A stretch of DNA of 64,000 nt from Candidatus Heimdallarchaeota archaeon. Its GTDB lineage: Archaea; Asgardarchaeota; Heimdallarchaeia; Heimdallarchaeales; Heimdallarchaeaceae. The notes beneath the pieces were generated by a model. The model had not been told where the DNA came from. It saw only the letters and a list, made by a program, of their open reading frames with translations, and did no database searches. The translations under genes and the position numbers were made by a program. Positions 41,809 to 52,158 of this stretch are shown here, one piece after another; within the stretch, counting starts at the first letter, position 1; every line of letters begins with the position of its first letter. Location: contig DAOVET010000002.1 of the NCBI GenBank assembly GCA_030668825.1, positions 2,571-66,570 on the forward strand, read 5' to 3'.

Positions 41809-42528
41809 GTGAATAGAATAAATGAAATAAAAAATCTGGATCTCGAAGGAAAACCTTTGATACAATCATTTAGTGGGAGTGGAGCAATAGGAACAATACT
41901 CTCTACATTTCTAGTGAAAGCATTGAAAATGGAACAAGTAGCAGTAATTCATGCAGATGAGCTACCACCAGTAGCAATAATCAAAGGGGGATTGATAGAA
42001 CAGCCGATAAGAATATTCCAAAATGACAAAATAGCTTTAATGTCTTGTGAAGTGAACATTCCTTACAATACTGTTTCAGATTTTATAGAAATGTTAATTG
42101 ATTTTTATATTAAAAGTGGAGTCTCGCACATCGTACCAGTGGGGGGATTACCTGTCTTACAAAACCAATTTGAAGAAATTGAATGTTATGGAATAGCAAA
42201 CAAACAAGAAACACTCACATTTCTAGAGGAAAAGGGAGTACAACTTCTAGAAGAAGGAATAGTATATGGAACAGTAGTTGAAACTTTAGAACTATGTACT
42301 ACAAAAGGGTTTGATTCGAGTTTTGCACTGTTGGTTGAATGTGACCCAAGTGTAGCTAGTTACGATTCAACAAAGAAACTAGTTCAAAATCTAGCTAAAA
42401 TATTTGATTTTAAATTTGATGAAGAAGAATTTGAAAGTGTTTCAAATATTATCAGAACAAGGATAGAAGAAAGCACAAGATTCTTAAGAGAAGAAGCAAT
42501 GGACAAAACAAGAGAAAGTCACCTCTAA
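41809..42528 (+). CDS. PAC2-family (proteasome assembly chaperone-like, COG1938) protein
   Basis: N-terminal 'LIQSFSGSGAIGTILSTFLVKAL' resembles the PAC2 GxPGxGxVG motif. Size is 239 aa. Confidence 0.4.
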   Translation: MNRINEIKNLDLEGKPLIQSFSGSGAIGTILSTFLVKALKMEQVAVIHADELPPVAIIKGGLIEQPIRIFQNDKIALMSCEVNIPYNTVSDFIEMLIDFYIKSGVSHIVPVGGLPVLQNQFEEIECYGIANKQETLTFLEEKGVQLLEEGIVYGTVVETLELCTTKGFDSSFALLVECDPSVASYDSTKKLVQNLAKIFDFKFDEEEFESVSNIIRTRIEESTRFLREEAMDKTRESHL

Positions 42529-42699
42529 GACAAAGACTTCCATTAGGTGAGTTAAGCTGTTTTTTCTCTAAAACCTTGAATCTGAAAAGAATGGGGTTTT
42601 TTGTCGCGTTTTAACCTCTCAACAAAGATTACAAAAAAGTTTAAATATGTTCAAGGACAATTTTACTTGGTTAATGGCAGGCTATTTAGGAGCCAAATG

Positions 42700-43020
42700 G
42701 TTAGGTCAAAAAGGGACTGCAAACTGAACAGGAAGAGATATCCGATGCTCAGGGACAAGGTTGAACCCCTTTTTAGATGGTTTGAACCCCCATTTGGGCT
42801 TAGTTAAGACCTCCTAAGCCTGAAATCCCCCAGAACCAGACTTCGGTCTGGAATCAGACACTTATTTTGTCTGAAAAAAAAGGACCAGACATCTTCTGTC
42901 TGCCAGAAAGGTATGGTCTTGCTTGACCAGATCCTGGAACCCCCCTCAACCAAAACCCCGAAGCATCGAGTTAGAATAGCCTTCCTGTTCAGGCAGAAAA
43001 CCCTTTAGGGTTTCTTAACC
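42700..43020. ncRNA. GC-rich (about 45% against a roughly 31% background) hairpin-dense noncoding island; candidate structured RNA of unknown class
   Basis: At least six hairpins: GGCTTAG/CTAAGCC (42797-42820); CCAGAC-UUCG-GTCTGG (42836-42851); CAGACA/TGTCTG (42855-42873 and 42886-42902); TGGTC/GACCA (42914-42929); AAACCC-TTTA-GGGTTT plus T-run (42998-43013). Repeated 'GAACCCC' and 'CCAGA' words. The strand is undetermined. Confidence 0.3.
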
Positions 43021-43100
43021 TCTTTTCCTTTTAATTTCTGTTCATTGATTTTTTGTGTTTTTTTTGTGTTTTTAAGCTATATTGCAATAATAATATCATT

Positions 43101-45278
43101 ATGAAAAATTCAGATGCAAATATAGACCTTAGTAAGCTTCTAAATGATTCATACATAAGTGATCAATTCAATAACCTAGCTAAAGAAAAGAAGAAATTTA
43201 TTGAAGAGTTGACAGATGAGGAAAAGAAGATTTATACTGAAACTATATCTTATATTTTCACAGAAGAAAAATCTGATGCTAAAGTGTCTCGTAGTTTTGC
43301 AGAACCCTTTCAGGTGACATGGAGAAAAATACACTGCCAAAAAGATTTCTTGCGCACTGCTATTTTACCCAAAATCACAAAAGATGTTCTTGTTAAGGGT
43401 TTTCCTACAAGAATAGGAAGCCACCCTGGGTTTGATGATGTCTTCTTAGGAGTTGATTCCAAAGGAAAATTTGTCTTTGGAGTATTTGAACTGAAAACAA
43501 ACAAGATTGGAAGTACTTCCCATAGACTCGATAAAGGAACCGAAGCAAGCAAATTGATAGCATTTAATTTGCGAAAAATGAGTACTAAATTTGTTGAAAA
43601 ACTAGTTCTTGATGGTGTGGATTTGAAAAAGGCTCAACGTATTGGAAACGCTCTATTTAATAGATTCAGAATGTCAGCAACTGCAATCGGTTTTGATTTT
43701 CAAAGAAAAGTATCAAGTATGGATATTGTTAAACTATTCCATAATTATTTTGATATACAGCTTATAAATAAAATTCTTGAAGCTGCAATTAAACAAAATC
43801 AGCTAATATCTTTAATAAAAACCTGCTATGCTTTCAAGAAGGAAATCAAAAACAAATATGTTACTGTTGTTAAAGATAAAACTACTGATGTCACAAATCT
43901 AATCAATCTAAATTACAAATACAAAAAAGGTAAAAAAATTGAAATTCCTATCAGTGGTGATTTCTTTAGGATTGATTATGATTTACATACCAAGGAGTTT
44001 AAATTTCCGCAGTTTTCTAGCTCTGCTTTAGGTGTTACTACTTTATCATTTGAGCAGAAAAGAGCTTATTTCAGTTTGAATAAACTAATTAGAAAAGCAC
44101 TGAAGAAAGTTGAGCTATCAATTGTGGATGAAAGTGGGGAATTATTGCAAACAAATGAAATAATTAAAAGATTAAATTCAATGCAATCATTTGTGTATAA
44201 AGCACTGATTAAATCAAGAGTTTTTGATGATTTTCAGGTTTTTCATAAAGGTACAATGTTTTTCTTTCTTGAAACTTTATCAAGTGAGAGTAATGAGAAG
44301 AAAATATCTAGATATTTGAAGAATTATTCAAGCTATAAAGGAATAGCTAATTATCATTATCATCAAAAATGGATAGTTCCTTCTATTTTAGACTTAGGTA
44401 TTTTTGTGGGAAATTTAAAAGAAGAAAATGAAAACTCGCGTAAATTCAGATTATTTCTGTATAAACATCTACTTGATGGAAGTTCTACTGATACAAAAGA
44501 TATGGATATTGAAGAGATTGAAGAGCTTATAACCTCAAATTCTGAATTAAGAGATTATCTTATTGGAAATTTCAGACGTGATATAAGATTACCTGATGGT
44601 TATTTCTGGACTCAAGCAATAAATTCCACACACTTGAAGAAAGCTTTGGTATTTTGTAATGTAAGAGATAGCAAACCCAAAAAGATGTATGGTTGTAATT
44701 TATATACAAGCTATGATTTTCAATACCTTCTAAAGGATTTGGAACTCGATTCCATACTCCTTCAAAATCCTATTACATTTGGAATTAATGAAGGTAGGTT
44801 AGTAGCAGATTTCAATACAGATAGGAATGTTAAGATTGCAAAAGTATGGATAGAATTTTTATCAGAAACCACAGATATTCCAAAGAATACACTACAAAGA
44901 CTCAATACTCATCTAGGACCTGGTGGTGGGATAGATCTATTATATCCACAAACTAACTGTGAATTACTCAGAATGTTGGTTGTAATTCTATTAAAATTCC
45001 AAGAAAATTGGGACAAATTAACATTATACATTATTCAAGAAATAAAAACAAAACAAGTACAATGGGAAATTGAAACTTTAAAAAAGAACAACCCTGTTAT
45101 ATTTGTTAACAAAAGGAATCAAATAACAATTAATGGTGAAGAAGCAATCATAAGATTAGGAACATTAGATGGAACTAATTGGAGAACAACAAGACCATTA
45201 TACTGTTTAGCAAACAGCTCTTGTTGGTTTAATAATATCATCTCTATCTTCAAGAGAGCATACCAAGAAATTATTTAA
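43101..45278 (+). CDS. large hypothetical protein (725 aa) with N-terminal Hjc-like PD-(D/E)xK nuclease core
   Basis: 'HPGFDDVFLGVDSKGKFVFGVFELKTNK' parallels the Hjc motif 'PDIIALKSG-VIILIEMKSRK'. The remaining roughly 570 aa are unrecognised. The track ORF starts at 43053. Confidence 0.5.
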   Translation: MKNSDANIDLSKLLNDSYISDQFNNLAKEKKKFIEELTDEEKKIYTETISYIFTEEKSDAKVSRSFAEPFQVTWRKIHCQKDFLRTAILPKITKDVLVKGFPTRIGSHPGFDDVFLGVDSKGKFVFGVFELKTNKIGSTSHRLDKGTEASKLIAFNLRKMSTKFVEKLVLDGVDLKKAQRIGNALFNRFRMSATAIGFDFQRKVSSMDIVKLFHNYFDIQLINKILEAAIKQNQLISLIKTCYAFKKEIKNKYVTVVKDKTTDVTNLINLNYKYKKGKKIEIPISGDFFRIDYDLHTKEFKFPQFSSSALGVTTLSFEQKRAYFSLNKLIRKALKKVELSIVDESGELLQTNEIIKRLNSMQSFVYKALIKSRVFDDFQVFHKGTMFFFLETLSSESNEKKISRYLKNYSSYKGIANYHYHQKWIVPSILDLGIFVGNLKEENENSRKFRLFLYKHLLDGSSTDTKDMDIEEIEELITSNSELRDYLIGNFRRDIRLPDGYFWTQAINSTHLKKALVFCNVRDSKPKKMYGCNLYTSYDFQYLLKDLELDSILLQNPITFGINEGRLVADFNTDRNVKIAKVWIEFLSETTDIPKNTLQRLNTHLGPGGGIDLLYPQTNCELLRMLVVILLKFQENWDKLTLYIIQEIKTKQVQWEIETLKKNNPVIFVNKRNQITINGEEAIIRLGTLDGTNWRTTRPLYCLANSSCWFNNIISIFKRAYQEII

Positions 45279-46431
45279 CATAATTTGGTTCTTCCCCCTT
45301 ATCTTCTAGATCTTGTTGTTCAGTTGGATATACTGTCTTTCTTGACGATTTCACTATTTTACTAAAAACTCTATAACTACCAATAGAAACCAAGATAATT
45401 GAGAGAATGATGAGAGCTTTCAGCATAATGTCAAGCCAGAGATTTAAGGAGTGTTTCTGAACATCTTCAGGATTTAACACCAACATGAAATTAGAAGGGT
45501 AAAACTCATAGAGAGTGCTTAAAACCAACAATAATACTATCCTTAGTGTAAAGAATATTGTTATTATCAAAGCTGTTCTTCCTACAACCCACAATGACGG
45601 ATACTTTTCTTTGTTTAAAACTCCCCTTATAGAATTGGATTTTCCTCTTATTTTCCTATAATGGTAATAGATTGAACTTGTATATTCTACATTAGGGTTT
45701 TTCGATAATTTTCTCTGCACTCCGAAAATAAATTGAATAACATGATAAGAAAACCCAGCAAGAGCTATATAAAAACAACCTATTGAAAAATAGTGGAAAA
45801 TGTCATAGAGTAAACACCAAGTGTAAGAAATTAACTGTGGAAAATAGAAGTAAGGATTAGTATATAAGAAACTAAACATAAAAACCGAAATGAGAAGAAA
45901 AATTATTTTCCTCACAAACATGTTATCGTCATTATAACTGTGAGCTAGTCTGTTTCCTACTCTATTCTCAATTTCTGTTACTTCACGTGACATCTTATTA
46001 TAACCAATAATATTAAACAGGGCTAAACCTACAAACACACCAATAGTTAATGCCCAATTAATCTCAAATGGATTGGAACGAGTAAAGTCGAAATATTCTG
46101 TAAAATTTATTGAAGTAGATTCATCATAGAACAGTAAAAACAACTTATTAGATGAGTTAATGTATTGATTTAGGAGTTTAATCACCAAAAGAGTATCAAC
46201 TAATACACTAAGACCCCTACGAATTCGACAATTTTCAGTTATCTCAAAATCATTAATCGTCACTTCAAAACCAATGATTTTTGGTAATTTCTTTAGTTCT
46301 ACGTGAACTTCTTTGTAATCTTCTAGAACTTCTATATTTTCAATAATTATGTCCTCTACAGATCCTTGAGCTGTTTTAGTATTTAGGAATATAATAACGA
46401 ATAAGAGAGTAATCAACAAGCATCTTTTCAT
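45271..46431 (-). CDS. polytopic membrane protein (signal peptide plus about 6 TM helices)
   Basis: 'MKRCLLITLLFVIIFLNTKTAQG' and multiple hydrophobic helices. Its 3' end overlaps the 43101-45278 gene by 8 nt (convergent). Confidence 0.45.
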   Translation of the reverse strand: MKRCLLITLLFVIIFLNTKTAQGSVEDIIIENIEVLEDYKEVHVELKKLPKIIGFEVTINDFEITENCRIRRGLSVLVDTLLVIKLLNQYINSSNKLFLLFYDESTSINFTEYFDFTRSNPFEINWALTIGVFVGLALFNIIGYNKMSREVTEIENRVGNRLAHSYNDDNMFVRKIIFLLISVFMFSFLYTNPYFYFPQLISYTWCLLYDIFHYFSIGCFYIALAGFSYHVIQFIFGVQRKLSKNPNVEYTSSIYYHYRKIRGKSNSIRGVLNKEKYPSLWVVGRTALIITIFFTLRIVLLLVLSTLYEFYPSNFMLVLNPEDVQKHSLNLWLDIMLKALIILSIILVSIGSYRVFSKIVKSSRKTVYPTEQQDLEDKGEEPNYVK

Positions 46432-46546
46432 TATATATTTATAGAAAAAAGTGCATATATACACCACAAAAATATCTTACAAAAATATTCGATATGGAGG
46501 GAAACTTTAAAGTATTAACTTGAGAATTAGAGGGTTAAGATGATGA

Positions 46547-47041
46547 AGAATTCTTGTAGACAATCAAGAAATTCTTCATTATACTGAAAATCAACTGGCT
46601 GATTACAGATGTAAAACTGTAGGTTTAATCTATCAGTCTTACAATTTAGCGCAGTTCTTGACTGTCAAAGAAAATATAGAGTTTCCAATGTTATTGGCAA
46701 AAACACCACTAGAAAAAAGAGAAAAACGTATTGAAGAGCTAACAGAATTTCTAGAAATTAGTAGATACATTGAGCAAAAACCTGAATTCTTGAGTGGAGG
46801 GGAACAACAACGAGTTGCGATTGCTATTGCCTTAGCAAATAATCCTCCAATAATATTAGCTGATGAGCCTACAGGTAATATTGATGTAGAAACAGCAGAA
46901 ACAGTTTACACCAATTTATCTCATATGTGCCAAATCTATAACACAACTCTTGTGATAGCCTCACATGATCCAAAAGCCTCAGAATATACAGAAAGAGAGG
47001 TAATTCTAACAGAATTAGAATCCAATAAGATAAGAAGGTGA
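46547..47041 (+). pseudogene. 5'-truncated ABC transporter ATP-binding protein (MacB/LolD-like), lacking Walker A
   Basis: The frame opens after a TGA at 46544-46546 and reads '[47 protein letters not shown]...[32 protein letters not shown]...SHD'. Q-loop, signature, Walker B and H-loop are present. There is no P-loop and no ATG. Confidence 0.55.
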
Positions 47042-47195
47042 AAATTAGTAGAAGAAAGAAACTTATCGAATATAGAAAAGCCTGTGATGATTTATGTAAA
47101 TTTAATGGAGCTAGCTATGTTCCTTTAAATTGAAGGTGAGTTATAATGATATGTAAATACGAATTATTCACTTTTTTGTTTTTGAATTATGGAAC

Positions 47196-48611
47196 TTAAA
47201 AATATTTTTCTAGTTTCTTAGTAGAGAGAACCAGTACAATTAAAGAAATTGAAATGGTGCTGTATCTCTTCTGAGATTTAGAATTCAAATCAGAAGTAAA
47301 ACGAAGACTATATCTGTTCAAATTAAAAAAATCTATTTCTGATATTGGAATACGATAATAGTAAATAGAACTTGGTCCCCAAGTAGCAGAAGTTTTTTTA
47401 CTCCTATCAAAACTAGACCAAGCAAAATGGAAATAGTTTTCACTTAGATCGCAGTGAGCGTAAAATTCATTGTATTTTGATGTACTTGTTAATTGAACTT
47501 CCTCAAAACTCTCTCCATCGTATTTACCCAAGAATATGTCCATTTGATCACTATTGTTTAAGAAAGTTCTTCGTGTATATACAAAACGAAAAGTGCCATC
47601 TTCAAGAACGCAAATAGAGTCATCATAAAAAATCATGTTACCATAAAAGCTGACTATTTCTTGAGTAGTAGAATAAGTAGAGTTGAAAACTTTTGTAAGA
47701 AAAAGACGACTGATATTAGTTTCATGGCCACTTTCATAATAAAATACATTGAATGTGTTATCAGAAGGAATTATAGCTATAGAATATTGGGGAGGATTAC
47801 CTATTCCCAATTTATAAAGTTCCCAACCGTTTTCTGGCCAATTAATAGCTAAATAAGGATGCATATTGTTTTCATTTATATAGTTCCCCCATAGCAAAGC
47901 TATAGTAGAATTCACAACTTTGAAATCGCCAGGAGCTACTGAAAAATCATCAACGATTTCGGGTAACACCGTATGCATGAATATACCCTTGTTTTCTGTG
48001 CCATTGTAGATAACAGGTGTTTGAACACCAACGGTACTTCCATTTATTTGAAAAAGCTGATGCGTGATGAATGCAAACACAGCATCTCCAGAACCAGAAA
48101 ATAGCCAGTTTAAAACAGGTTTTCTCACACCTACGCTACAATTGTAGGGCACATTTTCTAGAGCTGGATGTTCCTCCCAGGTATTATTGATTACTGTTAA
48201 AACCTCCCCTAGATCGTTTTCATATCCAGTTGTTGCATAAATATAAATAAAAGGTCTTTTTTGTGGGTCTAATCCAATTCTTATTTGAAAAAAAGTACCT
48301 AAAACCATCGAATTAAATCTTGGAATGAAAGCTATAGTGTCTTCCTTGAGATTTAATCTGGTATAGATCAAGTCTATGTCGTCTCCGATATCAGATGTAG
48401 CATTAGAGAAACAGAAATGGGTTATGTTATCATTTTCTACAACCATGTCTGATAGAATACTTGCATTCCATAAAGCATTGGGATAAACATATTTATCAGT
48501 AATTGGTTTCTTTGGTTGTTCGATAACTAGGTAATATATAGGTAAAGCAATCGCAAGGCTAATACTTATTAAAATCCCTATTGAAATAACAATTCTCAGA
48601 TACTTTTGCAT
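47196..48611 (-). CDS. secreted protein (471 aa) with N-terminal TM/signal and hydrophobic C-terminus
   Basis: 'MQKYLRIVISIGILISISLAIALPIYYLVI'. C-terminus 'ISISLIVLVLSTKKLEKYF'. Many N-x-S/T sequons. Confidence 0.45.
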   Translation of the reverse strand: MQKYLRIVISIGILISISLAIALPIYYLVIEQPKKPITDKYVYPNALWNASILSDMVVENDNITHFCFSNATSDIGDDIDLIYTRLNLKEDTIAFIPRFNSMVLGTFFQIRIGLDPQKRPFIYIYATTGYENDLGEVLTVINNTWEEHPALENVPYNCSVGVRKPVLNWLFSGSGDAVFAFITHQLFQINGSTVGVQTPVIYNGTENKGIFMHTVLPEIVDDFSVAPGDFKVVNSTIALLWGNYINENNMHPYLAINWPENGWELYKLGIGNPPQYSIAIIPSDNTFNVFYYESGHETNISRLFLTKVFNSTYSTTQEIVSFYGNMIFYDDSICVLEDGTFRFVYTRRTFLNNSDQMDIFLGKYDGESFEEVQLTSTSKYNEFYAHCDLSENYFHFAWSSFDRSKKTSATWGPSSIYYYRIPISEIDFFNLNRYSLRFTSDLNSKSQKRYSTISISLIVLVLSTKKLEKYF

Positions 48612-48818
48612 TAGCTCACCTAATAGTCGTTCAATACATCTTATATAGCTTTTCTCGCATTCTACAGTTTGCCTTATATTAAAATTTCAAGATTATAAGT
48701 ATTATTTAGAGATTCTCTTTTAATTTGGAAATGTTTCAATACTCAACAAATCACTTTTAAATTTATAATCCTATCAGTATTGTTTGGAGATGATGATTTT
48801 ACAAGCACAAAAATTGTG

Positions 48819-50483
48819 CTATATCTTGCTTTTTCTTTTCGAACTAAATTTGAAATAACCAAATACAGCTAGTGGGATTAGTACAACTAAAGAAAGAAAC
48901 GAGTAGTAAATGTTATTATTTCTATAGATTGGAGGTTCAGAAAGAGGATAAAGGTCTTGTGCATTTGCAAATCCATCTATATAATAGCTTCCCACTACAA
49001 CAAAATAGTCAGTCCAGTAATTCCCTTCTTCTGATTCTTCATCGTACCAAATATTATTTACACCATCGTCTTTAGCTTGAGCAGTGTTAAAATATTGATT
49101 ATTTTCTATGAAAGAATTATGATGTATTGAATTATTCCTTGAGTATAAATCCAGAACTACTCCCCATAGAAGGTTTTCACTTAAAAAATTGTAACTAAGT
49201 TCATTTTTGGAAGAGCTTTCTAGAACTATACCTGCAAAATTTGAGTTACACGTATTATTGATGATCGCCATTCCTATGGAACCATAAGTATAGATTCCGA
49301 GATTCCAATTATCAGAGCAAAAATTGTTTTGAATTGTTCCTTTAATACAATAACGTAGGGTTATACCTGTATGAGTATAGGATAGGTTTTGGTTCAATAT
49401 TTGAATATTGGAACAATCTGCAAGAATTAACTGACCGTAAATAGGTTGGGTAATTTTTAGATCATCTAAACCCACAAAATAACCAAATTCTTTGTCATTA
49501 ACCGAATTATTTTGGACAATGTAGGAGTGATAGTCTTCTCTGTTTAGTTCATAGAATTCGAAACCACTTCTATACAGAGCATTGTTAGTTATTTTTGACT
49601 CCTCAGCATCGATTAAGTATATCCCAATTCCATTACCAGAACAAATATTATTGTCAACTGTTACATTCCCCCCATTTACTATGACAATCCCCATACCAGA
49701 GCAATGGTTGTTTGAAACAAAAGAATCATTGGATTCATAAAGCGCTATATTAGTCTGGCTATTATCTGTGCACAAGTTATTTACTACAGTTGATTTGTTG
49801 GATTGAGATAAACTTATGCCCCCATGGTAAGTATTTTCATAACATCTATTATCAGCTACGTACGATAAAGGTGATTCTTCCACAACAATCCCTCCCATAC
49901 TATTTGAATTGCAAGTGTTATTATTAATCAAACACGCTTCACTTAGGTCTACAAATATCCCTAACCAACCATCCTGAATACACCGATTGTTTTCAATTTG
50001 TGATTCAGAAGAGTTCCCAACATGAATACCAACAAAGCTATTATAGTTGCAAGTATTGTTAATTATTTTCGTGCCTGGTGAATGATTGATTCGAATGCCT
50101 GTTGCAGAATTTCCCACACAAATGTTGTCTTCTATTATAGTTGTTTCTTTCCTTACAGAATCTATAACTATACCGCCCCTATAAGCATCTACAAAACAAT
50201 TCTGAATTTTAAAATATTTAGTCGTATTATGGATATAGATTCCTTTATCCTCAGAGGTTGTTATGTTCAAATTTTCAATCCTGAAAGGTTCTTGAGGAGT
50301 CCCAGTACCTAATAATCCATAATCTGTGAAATTTGAATCATTTGTTATTATAATTGGTAATGAGTCTAAGTAAGAAAAAGAATAGGGATAAGTAGTACTT
50401 TCTGAAACAATTATATTCTGAACAGTAATCTCAGTTGAGCTTATTAATATAACTAAAATAAACATTTGATATAATTTATTCAT
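48819..50483 (-). CDS. secreted right-handed parallel beta-helix (PbH1) repeat protein with C-terminal TM plus basic tail
   Basis: Signal 'MNKLYQMFILVILISS'. Repeated 'NNxCxxNxxxGIxxxxS' beta-helix units. C-terminus 'FLSLVVLIPLAVFGYFKFSSKRKSKI'. Confidence 0.6.
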   Translation of the reverse strand: MNKLYQMFILVILISSTEITVQNIIVSESTTYPYSFSYLDSLPIIITNDSNFTDYGLLGTGTPQEPFRIENLNITTSEDKGIYIHNTTKYFKIQNCFVDAYRGGIVIDSVRKETTIIEDNICVGNSATGIRINHSPGTKIINNTCNYNSFVGIHVGNSSESQIENNRCIQDGWLGIFVDLSEACLINNNTCNSNSMGGIVVEESPLSYVADNRCYENTYHGGISLSQSNKSTVVNNLCTDNSQTNIALYESNDSFVSNNHCSGMGIVIVNGGNVTVDNNICSGNGIGIYLIDAEESKITNNALYRSGFEFYELNREDYHSYIVQNNSVNDKEFGYFVGLDDLKITQPIYGQLILADCSNIQILNQNLSYTHTGITLRYCIKGTIQNNFCSDNWNLGIYTYGSIGMAIINNTCNSNFAGIVLESSSKNELSYNFLSENLLWGVVLDLYSRNNSIHHNSFIENNQYFNTAQAKDDGVNNIWYDEESEEGNYWTDYFVVVGSYYIDGFANAQDLYPLSEPPIYRNNNIYYSFLSLVVLIPLAVFGYFKFSSKRKSKI

Positions 50484-50511
50484 TGTATACTTATCCCCTT
50501 TGTTATTTTAT

Positions 50512-50769
50512 TTATTGTGGTGTGATGCCCTCTATTGATAAACAGAATCCATTTCCATAATCATTCCATCTTGTTGGAGTTTGGTTTGCGTTGTAGTAAT
50601 TAACTGACCCTACATAATGATTATACCACCACCATGCATCTATGAAAATATAATCGAAATCTGCAGTTATTGAACCTGCATATCCATGTTCAGAAGGATT
50701 TCCATTCCAAGAATAGTGCAGAAAACCCTTTGGGGTTTCAACTTTTCTTAACTTTTCTTTGTTTTTCAT
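50512..50769 (-). CDS. small Trp/Tyr-rich hypothetical protein (85 aa)
   Basis: ORF 28 nt upstream of the PbH1 gene, 'DAWWWYNHYVGSVNYYNANQTPTRWNDYGNGF'. Confidence 0.3.
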   Translation of the reverse strand: MKNKEKLRKVETPKGFLHYSWNGNPSEHGYAGSITADFDYIFIDAWWWYNHYVGSVNYYNANQTPTRWNDYGNGFCLSIEGITPQ

Positions 50770-50922
50770 GAGTTTTTTTGATGTTTCACTTGTTCCATAA
50801 TTCTCTGAAAAAAAACTAAAATCTAGAAAATATTATTCTTGTTATTAGAAATTAGGTTTATGGCCTTTTTGTATAAATATTTATAGCTAAAACTAGTCAT
50901 TTATGTTTAAGGAGTGTTTTAA

Positions 50923-51729
50923 ATGGAAGAAGAATCTAAAGATGATTTACTAGAAGAAGCTGAAGAGGAGCTTAGTGAAGAAGTAAAGGAAGAACTCAAA
51001 GAAGAGCTTGAGGAGGAAGTAGAAGAGTTCAGTGAAGAAGAAAAAGAAGATCTCGAAGAAGAACTCGAAGAAGAACCTGAGGAAGAAATAGATGAGCTTG
51101 TAGAGGAACTTGAAGAAATTGCAGAAGATGAAGACGAAATAGAAGAGATCGAAGAAGAAGCAGTTGAAGAAGTAGTAGAAGAAGCTGTAGAGGATGTTGT
51201 CGAAGAAATTCTTGATGAAATAGATGAAGAAGTAGAAGAAGAGGTTCTTGAAGATATTGTGGAAGAAGTGGTTGAAGAAGCTGAAGATGAAGCTGAGGAA
51301 GTGCAAATTGTTTCTGAACCAGAATATAAATCTGAACCTGCGCCAGAAGGGATTCCAGAAGATATCAAGAAATTAGGTGGTAACATCCAAATTATTTTGA
51401 AAGATGTCGATGGTGATTTGATTCCATTTGGGTATCATTTACAGAAAGACAAACTAATTATCAAAGAAGATGAAGCAATGAAAGTTAAAATTGTGTTATC
51501 ATGGTTATACAAACAAAATAGGAGCGTAGAAGAGATTTCTGATGCCACAAAACTAAGCATCGAAGAGATTGAAAAAATACTCATAAATCCTTTATACTTC
51601 GGTAAGATTTACTTCGAAGGAGCACTTGTGAAAGGCAATCATGAACCCATATTAACTGAAAGATATTGCAAATTAAATGAAATAAATACTGATGAAATTG
51701 AGGAAAAATATCTTTCCACAAAGAAATAA
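50923..51729 (+). CDS. polyacidic (Glu-rich) protein with C-terminal serine-recombinase 'recombinase' domain and no resolvase catalytic domain
   Basis: The first approximately 130 aa are EExEEEL repeats. The C-terminus 'MKVKIVLSWLYKQNRSVEEISDATKLSIEEIEKILINPLYFGKIYFEGALVKGNHEPILTERYCKLNE' matches the large serine recombinase pattern (iL.NP.Y.G......G.HepIi..e.f..vq). Confidence 0.5.
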   Translation: MEEESKDDLLEEAEEELSEEVKEELKEELEEEVEEFSEEEKEDLEEELEEEPEEEIDELVEELEEIAEDEDEIEEIEEEAVEEVVEEAVEDVVEEILDEIDEEVEEEVLEDIVEEVVEEAEDEAEEVQIVSEPEYKSEPAPEGIPEDIKKLGGNIQIILKDVDGDLIPFGYHLQKDKLIIKEDEAMKVKIVLSWLYKQNRSVEEISDATKLSIEEIEKILINPLYFGKIYFEGALVKGNHEPILTERYCKLNEINTDEIEEKYLSTKK

Positions 51730-51840
51730 GATTAAGGAAATTTATGTGCGGAAGTCTTACTTCCTATTCCTTTTTTAATTGTACTTTTTAATTCTCAATT
51801 TTCGTACTTTTTCTTATTAGAATACACAGTTAAATTCTTT

Positions 51841-52158
51841 TTAGCTAATTCCTTCAGCTAATAAATCCCCAATTGTGTCAGCAGTCATACTAAAAAAGGA
51901 GATGAGATCCTCCTTTGAATGCAAGAGTTCATACAGATTTTTCATCGGTAAATCTTGTCCTTCATCATCAACAAAAACAATTTCATACCCTAAACCTTTC
52001 CCTAGGTTGCTTTGTTCTCTTAACCATTCTCTCTGTTCTTCAAAGAAATTCTGTAGAAATTCTTTAACATTGATTATATTACTTAACTTGTATCTAGTCA
52101 ATTCAAGTTTTTTCTCACTTTCTTCAGCATAGATTTTGAATACCATTTTCCATGTCAA
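51841..52158 (-). CDS. hypothetical protein (105 aa)
   Basis: ORF only. Confidence 0.3.
   Translation of the reverse strand: MTWKMVFKIYAEESEKKLELTRYKLSNIINVKEFLQNFFEEQREWLREQSNLGKGLGYEIVFVDDEGQDLPMKNLYELLHSKEDLISFFSMTADTIGDLLAEGIS

Follow-up and report, generated by a model that had tools for sequence, protein, structure and literature searches.

A probable structured RNA gene of Heimdallarchaeaceae with a bulge-helix-bulge stem and a 3' end copied at neighbouring insertions

What is the GC-rich island that follows a PAC2 gene in the AT-rich DNA of Heimdallarchaeota? The island lies in a 64-kb stretch of a Heimdallarchaeota genome (contig DAOVET010000002.1), referred to here as the window, and all coordinates of its locus are given on the + strand. 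It is located in a gap free of open reading frames (ORFs) at 42529-43052, downstream of the PAC2 gene (41809-42528, PF09754, E=5.6e-25), and has a GC content of 0.445-0.465 over 42700-42999 compared with ~0.25-0.38 in its flanks. The initial annotation of the window, made from the letters of the sequence, had already remarked on this contrast, and the hairpins, the GAACCCC and CCAGA repeats and the terminal hairpin with T-runs that it described are all present. It had proposed a stable structured RNA gene or, alternatively, the relic of an attachment site bordering an accessory stretch; on our evidence the two proposals are compatible, and each is borne out. The island apparently represents a real, previously undescribed RNA family of the Heimdallarchaeaceae lineage, and we regard it as highly probable that the region is an RNA gene. 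The complete reading that we favour, with moderate confidence, is that of a single-copy gene for an undescribed structured non-coding RNA, which would be processed at a bulge-helix-bulge (BHB) motif by the tRNA-splicing endonuclease EndA and by RtcB, and whose 3' end is a recurrent insertion point.

Conservation, fold and transcription of the RNA

Homologous loci (labelled L001 through L031) were collected in three ways and yielded 23 full-length copies of the RNA region, 19 of them distinct. Five loci in metagenome-assembled genomes of Heimdallarchaeota have a PAC2 protein with 93-95% amino-acid identity to that of the window; all five contain the region, which is near-invariant from the promoter to ~43008, and beyond that point the sequences are unrelated. 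Ten further loci, fetched via PAC2 homologues of 56-79% identity, contain the RNA as well (10/10), and the remaining eight copies came from a pattern scan of metagenome contigs with 16 matches in all; the other eight matches, in unrelated GC-rich contigs, arose by chance. Exact scans of IMG/VR with the core pattern, or with the core of the attachment (att) sequence described below, gave no match, so that a viral origin is unsupported.

In every related locus fetched the RNA stands downstream of the PAC2 gene, in most of them directly after it. Its identity to the window copy is 78-98%, compared with 65-94% for the DNA of the adjacent PAC2 gene, a degree of conservation on a par with that of housekeeping RNAs. 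The gene is single-copy. In the least rearranged loci (L013, L014) the order is PAC2 - RNA - S30e - ELP3 - PDDEXK/helix-turn-helix - fibrillarin - Nop5. In the AB_125 lineage (L006:6739-9491, L007:6297-9049), an M20 peptidase gene on the opposite strand and an ORF of 363 amino acids (aa) are found between PAC2 and the RNA, which is still 96% identical. Among the outcomes named in the initial annotation as speaking against an RNA gene, the lack of a covariance-model match did occur, while loss of the region from homologous loci of relatives did not, these loci having kept it. As far as our searches reached, the RNA appears to be confined to Heimdallarchaeaceae, and our literature search found no paper describing it, containing its sequence words, or dealing with the signal recognition particle (SRP) RNA or RNase P RNA of Asgard archaea.

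The + strand of the island folds with -122.6 kcal/mol (z = -4.07 against dinucleotide shuffles). Three long-range helices close the whole element (CUGAACAGGAAG/CUUCCUGUUCAG, CGAUGCU/AGCAUCG and GGUUGA/UCAACC), giving it the overall shape of a long rod with a junction of several hairpins at its end; these helices, like the promoter at 42633-42647, had been missed by the initial annotation. A pair model with 58 pairs in 11 helices was placed on alignment A3, which holds the 19 distinct sequences. In this model 95.8% of the paired cells are occupied by pairs, against 30-46% when the partners are slid. Two-sided changes occur at 9 pairs, against 4.4 +/- 1.2 in column shuffles, and 0 of 500 shuffles reach 9, although this control is not to be read as a probability, the independent events being few. 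In our view, stronger evidence than these pair counts comes from the peripheral hairpins (after CGAUGCUUC, after CCAGAA and after CAACC), which are present, absent, or swapped for different sequences that still fold, as is typical of real structured RNAs.

Transcription is predicted to start from an archaeal promoter at 42633..42647 (+), read from the sequence as an A-rich B recognition element (BRE, AAAAAAG) followed by the TATA box TTTAAATA. The pattern AAAAA(G/C)(G/A)TTTA(A/T)ATA is found at equal distance in the aligned homologues, ~25 nucleotides (nt) ahead of the point where conservation of the RNA sets in; because this is the usual archaeal spacing, a start at ~42669-42673 is predicted. 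The predicted primary transcript of ~350 nt (42670..43025, +) would comprise a leader, a processing stem, the structured core and a trailer with T-runs. At its end, the terminator region (42998..43031, +) consists, in sequence and alignment, of a terminal hairpin (AAACCC-UUUA-GGGUUU, 42998-43013) and T-runs; the hairpin is found in part of the family only, the T-run in all homologues. The helix cells of the alignment contain 69 G:U against 25 A:C combinations, and this excess, the promoter and the T-runs together indicate the + strand. The minus strand also folds well (z = -3.6), yet the G:U and A:C counts and the promoter point away from it. Nor is the region likely to be coding, as the 68-aa and 49-aa ORFs that cross the island are disrupted in relatives by indels of 1 nt and 31 nt.

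Following the RNA inwards from the base of the rod, RNAalifold and the pair counts place in 42736..42768 (+) a conserved internal loop AGAUAU, facing AGUUAGAAUAGC (42969-80), and three helices: CGAUGCU (42743-49 with 42962-68), GGG/CCC (42752-54 with 42956-58) and GGUUGA/UCAACC (42759-64 with 42946-51). In the CGAUG helix a U:A pair has become A:U in L023 and L027, and U:G in three sequences. Alignments A2 and A3 further reveal two tandem GGUU(U)GAACCCC(C) elements (42759..42791, +), separated by the spacer UUUUUAGAU; the pair is invariant in 18 of the 19 sequences, and L014 has a single copy. These GGUUGAACCCC repeats can adopt two competing folds, either in the long-range helices or as a local hairpin, and their pairing remains ambiguous because bases that never vary offer no covariation.

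Next along the strand, alignment and pair counts support a hairpin UUGGGCUUAG/CUAAGCCUGA with the invariant loop UUAAGACCUC (42794..42823, +). Its helix, the ninth of the model, is 97.6% paired, with changes from G:U to G:C, and GACCUCCU is invariant in 19/19 sequences. The following part (42824..42902, +) begins with the invariant single strand AAUCCCCCAGAA and continues with three hairpins that share a CAGAC/GUCUG stem, namely CCAGAC-UUCG-GUCUGG (42836-42851), CAGAC...GUCUG (42855-42873) and CAGACA-UCUUC-UGUCUG (42886-42902). The first shows a change from C:G to U:A in four sequences, the middle one is missing in most lineages, and L014 has one CAGAC hairpin only. Finally, 42903..42945 (+) consists of CCAGAA, an optional hairpin (42910-34) recognized from a 31-nt indel and from the fold, and GGAACCCCCC. 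This hairpin is absent from L004, L005 and L002, and a hairpin of different sequence stands in its place in L009 and L027; the replaced hairpins all fold, with -13 to -16 kcal/mol.

The bulge-helix-bulge stem

The base of the rod has the form of a canonical BHB motif, in which each strand has a 3-nt bulge on the 3' side of a central 4-bp helix, an arrangement also known from pre-tRNA introns and rRNA processing stems. Its 5' strand (42710..42735, +) consists of the outer AAAGGG (42710-15), an A (42716), CUGC (42717-20), the bulge AAA (42721-23) and the inner CUGAACAGGAAG (42724-35); its 3' strand (42981..43006, +) consists of the inner CUUCCUGUUCAG (42981-92), GCAG (42993-96), the bulge AAA (42997-99), an A (43000) and the outer CCCUUU (43001-06). 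The geometry was examined in 15 distinct homologues, and the 4-bp helix, both bulges and both flanking helices are kept in all of them (15/15). The inner helix has 12 bp throughout, and the outer helix 2-9 bp with an offset of 0-2 nt. The central helix reads GUGC/GCAC in L014, a compensatory change from C:G to G:C, and CUGU/GCAG in L015 and L019, where C:G has become U:G and the second bulge is AAU. In L014, two pairs of the inner helix have undergone compensatory change as well (CUGGAUAGGAAG/CUUCCUAUCCAG), and the leader and trailer outside the motif drift freely. To judge from these sequences, few as the events are, selection appears to maintain the BHB motif.

In the processing that we consider probable, the precursor would be cut in both AAA bulges by EndA, the ends would be joined by RtcB, and the core thus released would be circular or later re-opened. 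Cleavage after the second base of each bulge is the established rule for EndA, and with such cuts the predicted core spans 42723..42998 (+), or 276 nt, in the window, and 210-290 nt across the homologues. The involvement of EndA and RtcB is proposed by analogy. In archaea, EndA cuts out pre-16S and pre-23S rRNA, which are then ligated to circles, Asgard archaea are reported to have circular rRNA transcripts, and SRP RNA and RNase P RNA are known as circular RNAs. In Thermoproteus, the precedent is a BHB-flanked and circularized RNA of ~300 nt with its own TATA box and a short leader, and a broad-specificity EndA cleaves BHB motifs without tRNA context (PMC4731332).

The 3' end as an insertion site

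The last 22 nt of the RNA gene (GCAGAAAACCCTTTAGGGTTTC, 42993..43014, +) recur as a direct repeat at 50718..50739 (+), with 21 of 22 positions identical and a spacing of 7725. The nearer copy resembles an attL site, and the distal copy (GCAGAAAACCCTTTGGGGTTTC) an attR site; the latter is the original 3' end, now displaced, and the sequence beyond it is the flank that in L001 comes after the RNA. This closest relative is 94% identical to the window over 5 kb up to the end of the RNA, and continues there with a homologue of window 50718-52000, as expected of an empty site. Because the site is uninterrupted in L001 and the distal window copy has the L001-type sequence and flank, the 7.7 kb between the two copies (43015..50717, absent from L001) are best explained as an insertion that rebuilt the end of the gene. 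That the 3' end of the RNA gene serves as an integration target is, in our judgement, highly probable.

The duplication is not limited to the window. Extra copies of the 3' end (its last 30-60 nt), in the same orientation and spaced 0.5-2.7 kb, follow the RNA in L003, L005, L008, L009, L010/11, L012 (four copies), L015, L019, L023 and L027/28. Dispersed copies, according to the initial annotation, would have pointed to a mobile repeat; the copies found are fragments of the 3' end only, as seen at tRNA integration sites. We propose that the last 22-60 nt of the gene would serve integrative elements as attB, and that each element would bring a copy of its own, so that each insertion would rebuild the gene and shift the old 3' end downstream. 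There is precedent for such a use of RNA genes, as tRNA and transfer-messenger RNA (tmRNA) genes serve as integration sites of genomic islands (Williams 2002, as cited in PMC8813620) and elements of Heimdallarchaeum integrate next to tRNA genes.

The genes of the island are a 741-aa ORF (43053-45278), a 398-aa ORF (45271-46467), a truncated ABC ATPase, a 471-aa ORF (47196-48611) and a NosD-like beta-helix protein. The 741-aa ORF had been described as a gene with a nuclease motif, a claim that we could not support: it has no match in Pfam, NCBIfam, PADLOC or PHROGs (the 398-aa and 471-aa ORFs have none either), and only a non-significant one (E=0.7) in the PDB. A 127-aa ORF (46658-47041, +) corresponds to the C-terminal half of an ABC-transporter ATPase (PF00005 positions 75-136; PADLOC mad3, E=6e-20) and is probably a truncated pseudogene. 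An 85-aa ORF (50512-50769, -), with no library match, spans the distal att copy and extends into the island; by eye, its sequence (..RWNDYGNG..) is like the C-terminal part of the neighbouring NosD-like protein, of which it may be a fragment severed at the recombination site. NosD-like right-handed beta-helix proteins are encoded beside the RNA in the window (48819-50483, -) and also at L009:7309-8910, L027:2152-3705 and L023:3951-5177; the content of the islands is therefore partly shared or repeatedly acquired.

In several lineages the RNA is followed by cassettes of one or two genes, arranged in arrays and each closed by a copy of the RNA 3' end (L012:7180-12600, L009:7180-10700, L003:7200-8530, L008:7250-8030, L023:3800-6060). 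The cassettes encode small secreted or membrane proteins, including a recurring 220-225-aa family, NosD-like beta-helix proteins and zinc-ribbon membrane proteins. Members of the 220-225-aa family, whose genes sit directly between two 3'-end copies, have a signal peptide and a C-terminal membrane anchor; they were considered as small serine recombinases and rejected, showing no similarity to recombinases and having the features of secreted or membrane-anchored proteins. The arrays fit repeated integration followed by decay. They also look integron-like, as if small cassettes had been captured, although no recombinase was found.

Just past the distal att copy, a gene on the + strand (50923-51729) encodes a 268-aa protein whose N-terminal 130 residues are nearly pure Glu/Asp repeats. 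Its C-terminal domain resembles the DNA-binding 'recombinase domain' of the serine integrase of phage A118 (PDB 4KIS, 6DNW; E=0.002-0.003; FGY and VKGxHEPI shared), with a match to Pfam PF07508 that falls short of the cut-off (E=0.028); the protein is without the catalytic resolvase domain and the zinc ribbon. The gene was also found at L001:7788-8201, L003:9024-9437, L004:9439-9852, L005:2983-3384 and L023:1-222, and in two lineages it bounds the cassette array. A separate insertion of 1.45 kb (L002:2859-4340, corresponding to window 42556-42590) lies between PAC2 and the promoter of the RNA in L002, flanked by 35-nt direct repeats (TTTTTCTCYAAAACTTTGAATCTGAAAAGAA) and encoding a 253-aa membrane protein and a 162-aa winged-helix/transmembrane protein, and the terminator region of PAC2 may be a second insertion site.

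Identity of the RNA, rival explanations and known systems

None of the known RNA classes examined accounts for the island. Searched at gathering score, the whole window gave no Rfam match, and with permissive filters and a limit of E<=10 nothing relevant was found in 42450-43150 or in the diverged copies L014:6730-7100 and L009:6800-7220; ARAGORN found 0 tRNA or tmRNA genes in the whole window. A box C/D small RNA was rejected, since there is no RUGAUGA, and CUGA at 42724 and 42820 is variable (CUGG in L014, CCUAAA and CCCGAA in others). Inspection of the window copy and the alignments by eye revealed no kink-turn (tandem G.A beside either helix of the conserved internal loop), no sarcin-ricin motif and no U6-like ACAGAGA. 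The telomerase-template-like CAAAACCCC lies in a variable, base-paired stretch and was dismissed. Likewise, a guide RNA of a neighbouring nuclease (similar to omega-RNA or tracrRNA) was discarded, as the 741-aa ORF has no nuclease domain and is absent from L001, and the RNA persists in loci without that ORF.

As to function, a single junction is surrounded by four invariant unpaired C-rich strands (GAACCCC twice, AAUCCCCCAGAA and CCAGAACCCCC) and by the invariant GACCUC loop, which would form the working surface of the RNA. We infer that these parts most likely bind a protein partner or a G-rich RNA in a stable ribonucleoprotein, in keeping with the extreme conservation of the sequence and with its probably circular form. 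The element GGUUUGAACCCCC resembles, and complements, the T-arm of tRNA, which is a lead only. Built on it, a more far-reaching joint reading, which we consider doubtful, would see here a new and essential ribonucleoprotein of a circular RNA, specific to Heimdallarchaeaceae, in which GGUU(U)GAACCCC (similar to T-arm GGGGGUUCAAA and complementary to it) and the C-rich strands would dock precursors of tRNA or rRNA. The same locus would also be an integron-like capture site, where small circular cassettes, made up of one or two surface-protein genes and a 3'-end copy of the RNA, would be taken up at the RNA gene, possibly helped by the 268-aa derivative of a serine integrase.

Several points weigh against a BHB-processed, single-copy RNA with a recurrent insertion point at its 3' end. 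Covariation events are few, because the RNA is so conserved: most helices never vary, and the changes come mostly from L014, L023/L027 and the L012 group. Transcription, cleavage and circularization we infer in their entirety. No integrase domain was found in the island of the window or in the cassettes of L003-L027. No protein partner or RNA target was identified, and a simple anti-Shine-Dalgarno role of the GACCUCC loop is unlikely, since Shine-Dalgarno-like words seldom precede the 40 long ORFs of the window. In the clade of the window, an A.A mismatch between the second bulge and the 6-bp outer helix slightly relaxes the BHB motif, whose outer helix also competes with the terminal hairpin. 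These last two features could reduce cleavage, and thus lend some weight to the possible, though rather unlikely, alternative that the RNA is genuine and structured but acts as a linear transcript, with a BHB geometry that is an uncleaved structural or protein-binding feature. All the evidence for an RNA gene would fit this alternative equally, and minimal BHB-like geometries are not rare by chance; however, the exact 3-4-3 geometry, with both bulges and a compensatory change in the 4-bp helix, is held in 15 of 15 homologues while leader and trailer drift, as in rRNA processing stems, and no tRNA context is needed by a broad-specificity EndA acting on such motifs (PMC4731332).

Both SRP RNA and RNase P RNA had been named as candidates in the initial annotation, and the RNA might be the lineage's version of one of them, too diverged or circularly permuted for covariance models. 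Size, GC contrast, single copy and conservation agree with this, the BHB flanks match a Thermoproteus precedent that was also missed by standard searches (PMC4731332), and canonical copies elsewhere in these genomes could not be confirmed, which also tells against a new family. Yet we regard the identification as improbable, considering that three diverged copies gave no Rfam match at E<=10, and that local alignment should catch helix 8, helix 6 or P4 even in a permuted molecule. Helix 8 of SRP RNA requires an invariant unpaired AGCA, and helices 6 and 8 bear GNAR tetraloops. Here the only AGCA (42962-65) is Watson-Crick paired with UGCU and is replaced by AACA, AACU or GGUA in homologues; the conserved loops are UUAAGACCUC and UCUUC, no GNAR tetraloop is conserved, and GNRA loops occur solely in optional hairpins of L012 and L029. 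The P4 elements of RNase P RNA, conserved regions CR-I (GGAAAGUCC) and CR-V (ACAGAA..GGCUUA), were not seen by eye in the window copy, A2 or A3. It is very improbable that the element is a cis-acting leader, or an intron in the 5' untranslated region, of the downstream S30e and ELP3 genes. In L014 and L013 the RNA does share its strand with S30e, of which it lies ~100-600 nt upstream, and an mRNA could in principle be matured by excision at the BHB motif and joining of the exons; but all homologues have T-runs after the RNA, in most genomes the way to S30e is taken up by 0.5-7.7 kb of unrelated cassettes, often encoded on the opposite strand, the AB_125 lineage has it in yet another context, and leader and trailer, the would-be 'exons', are its least conserved parts. 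Most remote of all appears the idea that there is no RNA, and that inverted repeats of a DNA-level recombination site or repeat relic fold by accident: the 3' end is demonstrably a recombination target copied many times, but only its last 22-60 nt are ever duplicated, while the other ~280 nt are single-copy, syntenic and conserved above coding DNA, with pairing kept through strand-specific G:U pairs and whole-hairpin replacement and with a conserved promoter ahead.

To our knowledge, non-coding RNAs have hardly been explored in Asgard archaea, and Heimdallarchaeaceae are an archaeal lineage placed close to eukaryotes. If the prediction of BHB-mediated processing is true, the RNA would be a further archaeal BHB-circularized RNA after rRNAs, tRNA introns and the SRP RNA of Thermoproteus, and it is a concrete target for pull-downs and for circular-RNA sequencing in Heimdallarchaeal enrichments. 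To annotators, it offers a marker gene that current pipelines miss, as well as a previously unrecognized integration hot spot, which explains a variable region rich in surface-protein genes.

The bacterial OLE, GOLLD, ROOL and raiA RNAs are large, lineage-restricted structured RNAs whose function was unassigned at discovery. With these the present RNA shares a length of hundreds of nt, many helices, highly conserved unpaired regions and a narrow taxonomic range, but it does not match their Rfam models, its host is archaeal, and those RNAs have no BHB stem. Archaeal SRP RNA (RF01857) and RNase P RNA (RF00373) are similar to it in size, in forming a GC-rich island in an AT-rich genome and in being single-copy, and differ in that neither their models nor their diagnostic motifs are matched here. 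At tRNA and tmRNA integration sites, the 3' end of an RNA gene is likewise duplicated at the far end of an island, with an empty site in relatives and tandem partial copies; the target here, however, is neither a tRNA nor a tmRNA, the islands contain no integrase, and many segments are only one or two genes long. In pre-rRNA processing stems, too, the 5' and 3' flanks form a long helix with a 3-nt bulge, a 4-bp helix and a 3-nt bulge, whereas the cargo here is 210-290 nt long, has no similarity to rRNA models, and belongs to its own transcription unit outside the rRNA operon. The nearest parallel is the permuted SRP RNA of T. tenax (Plagens et al. 2015, PMC4731332). SRP19 and SRP54 bind to the T. 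tenax molecule, in which helix 8 has the SRP54-binding motif and helix 6 the GNAR loop; the RNA described here has neither motif and shows no sign of permutation. In common, they have a length of ~300 nt, their own TATA box and a BHB motif formed by pairing of leader and trailer; the T. tenax RNA is cut by the tRNA-splicing endonuclease and circularized, as is predicted here, and both genes were overlooked by standard RNA gene finders.

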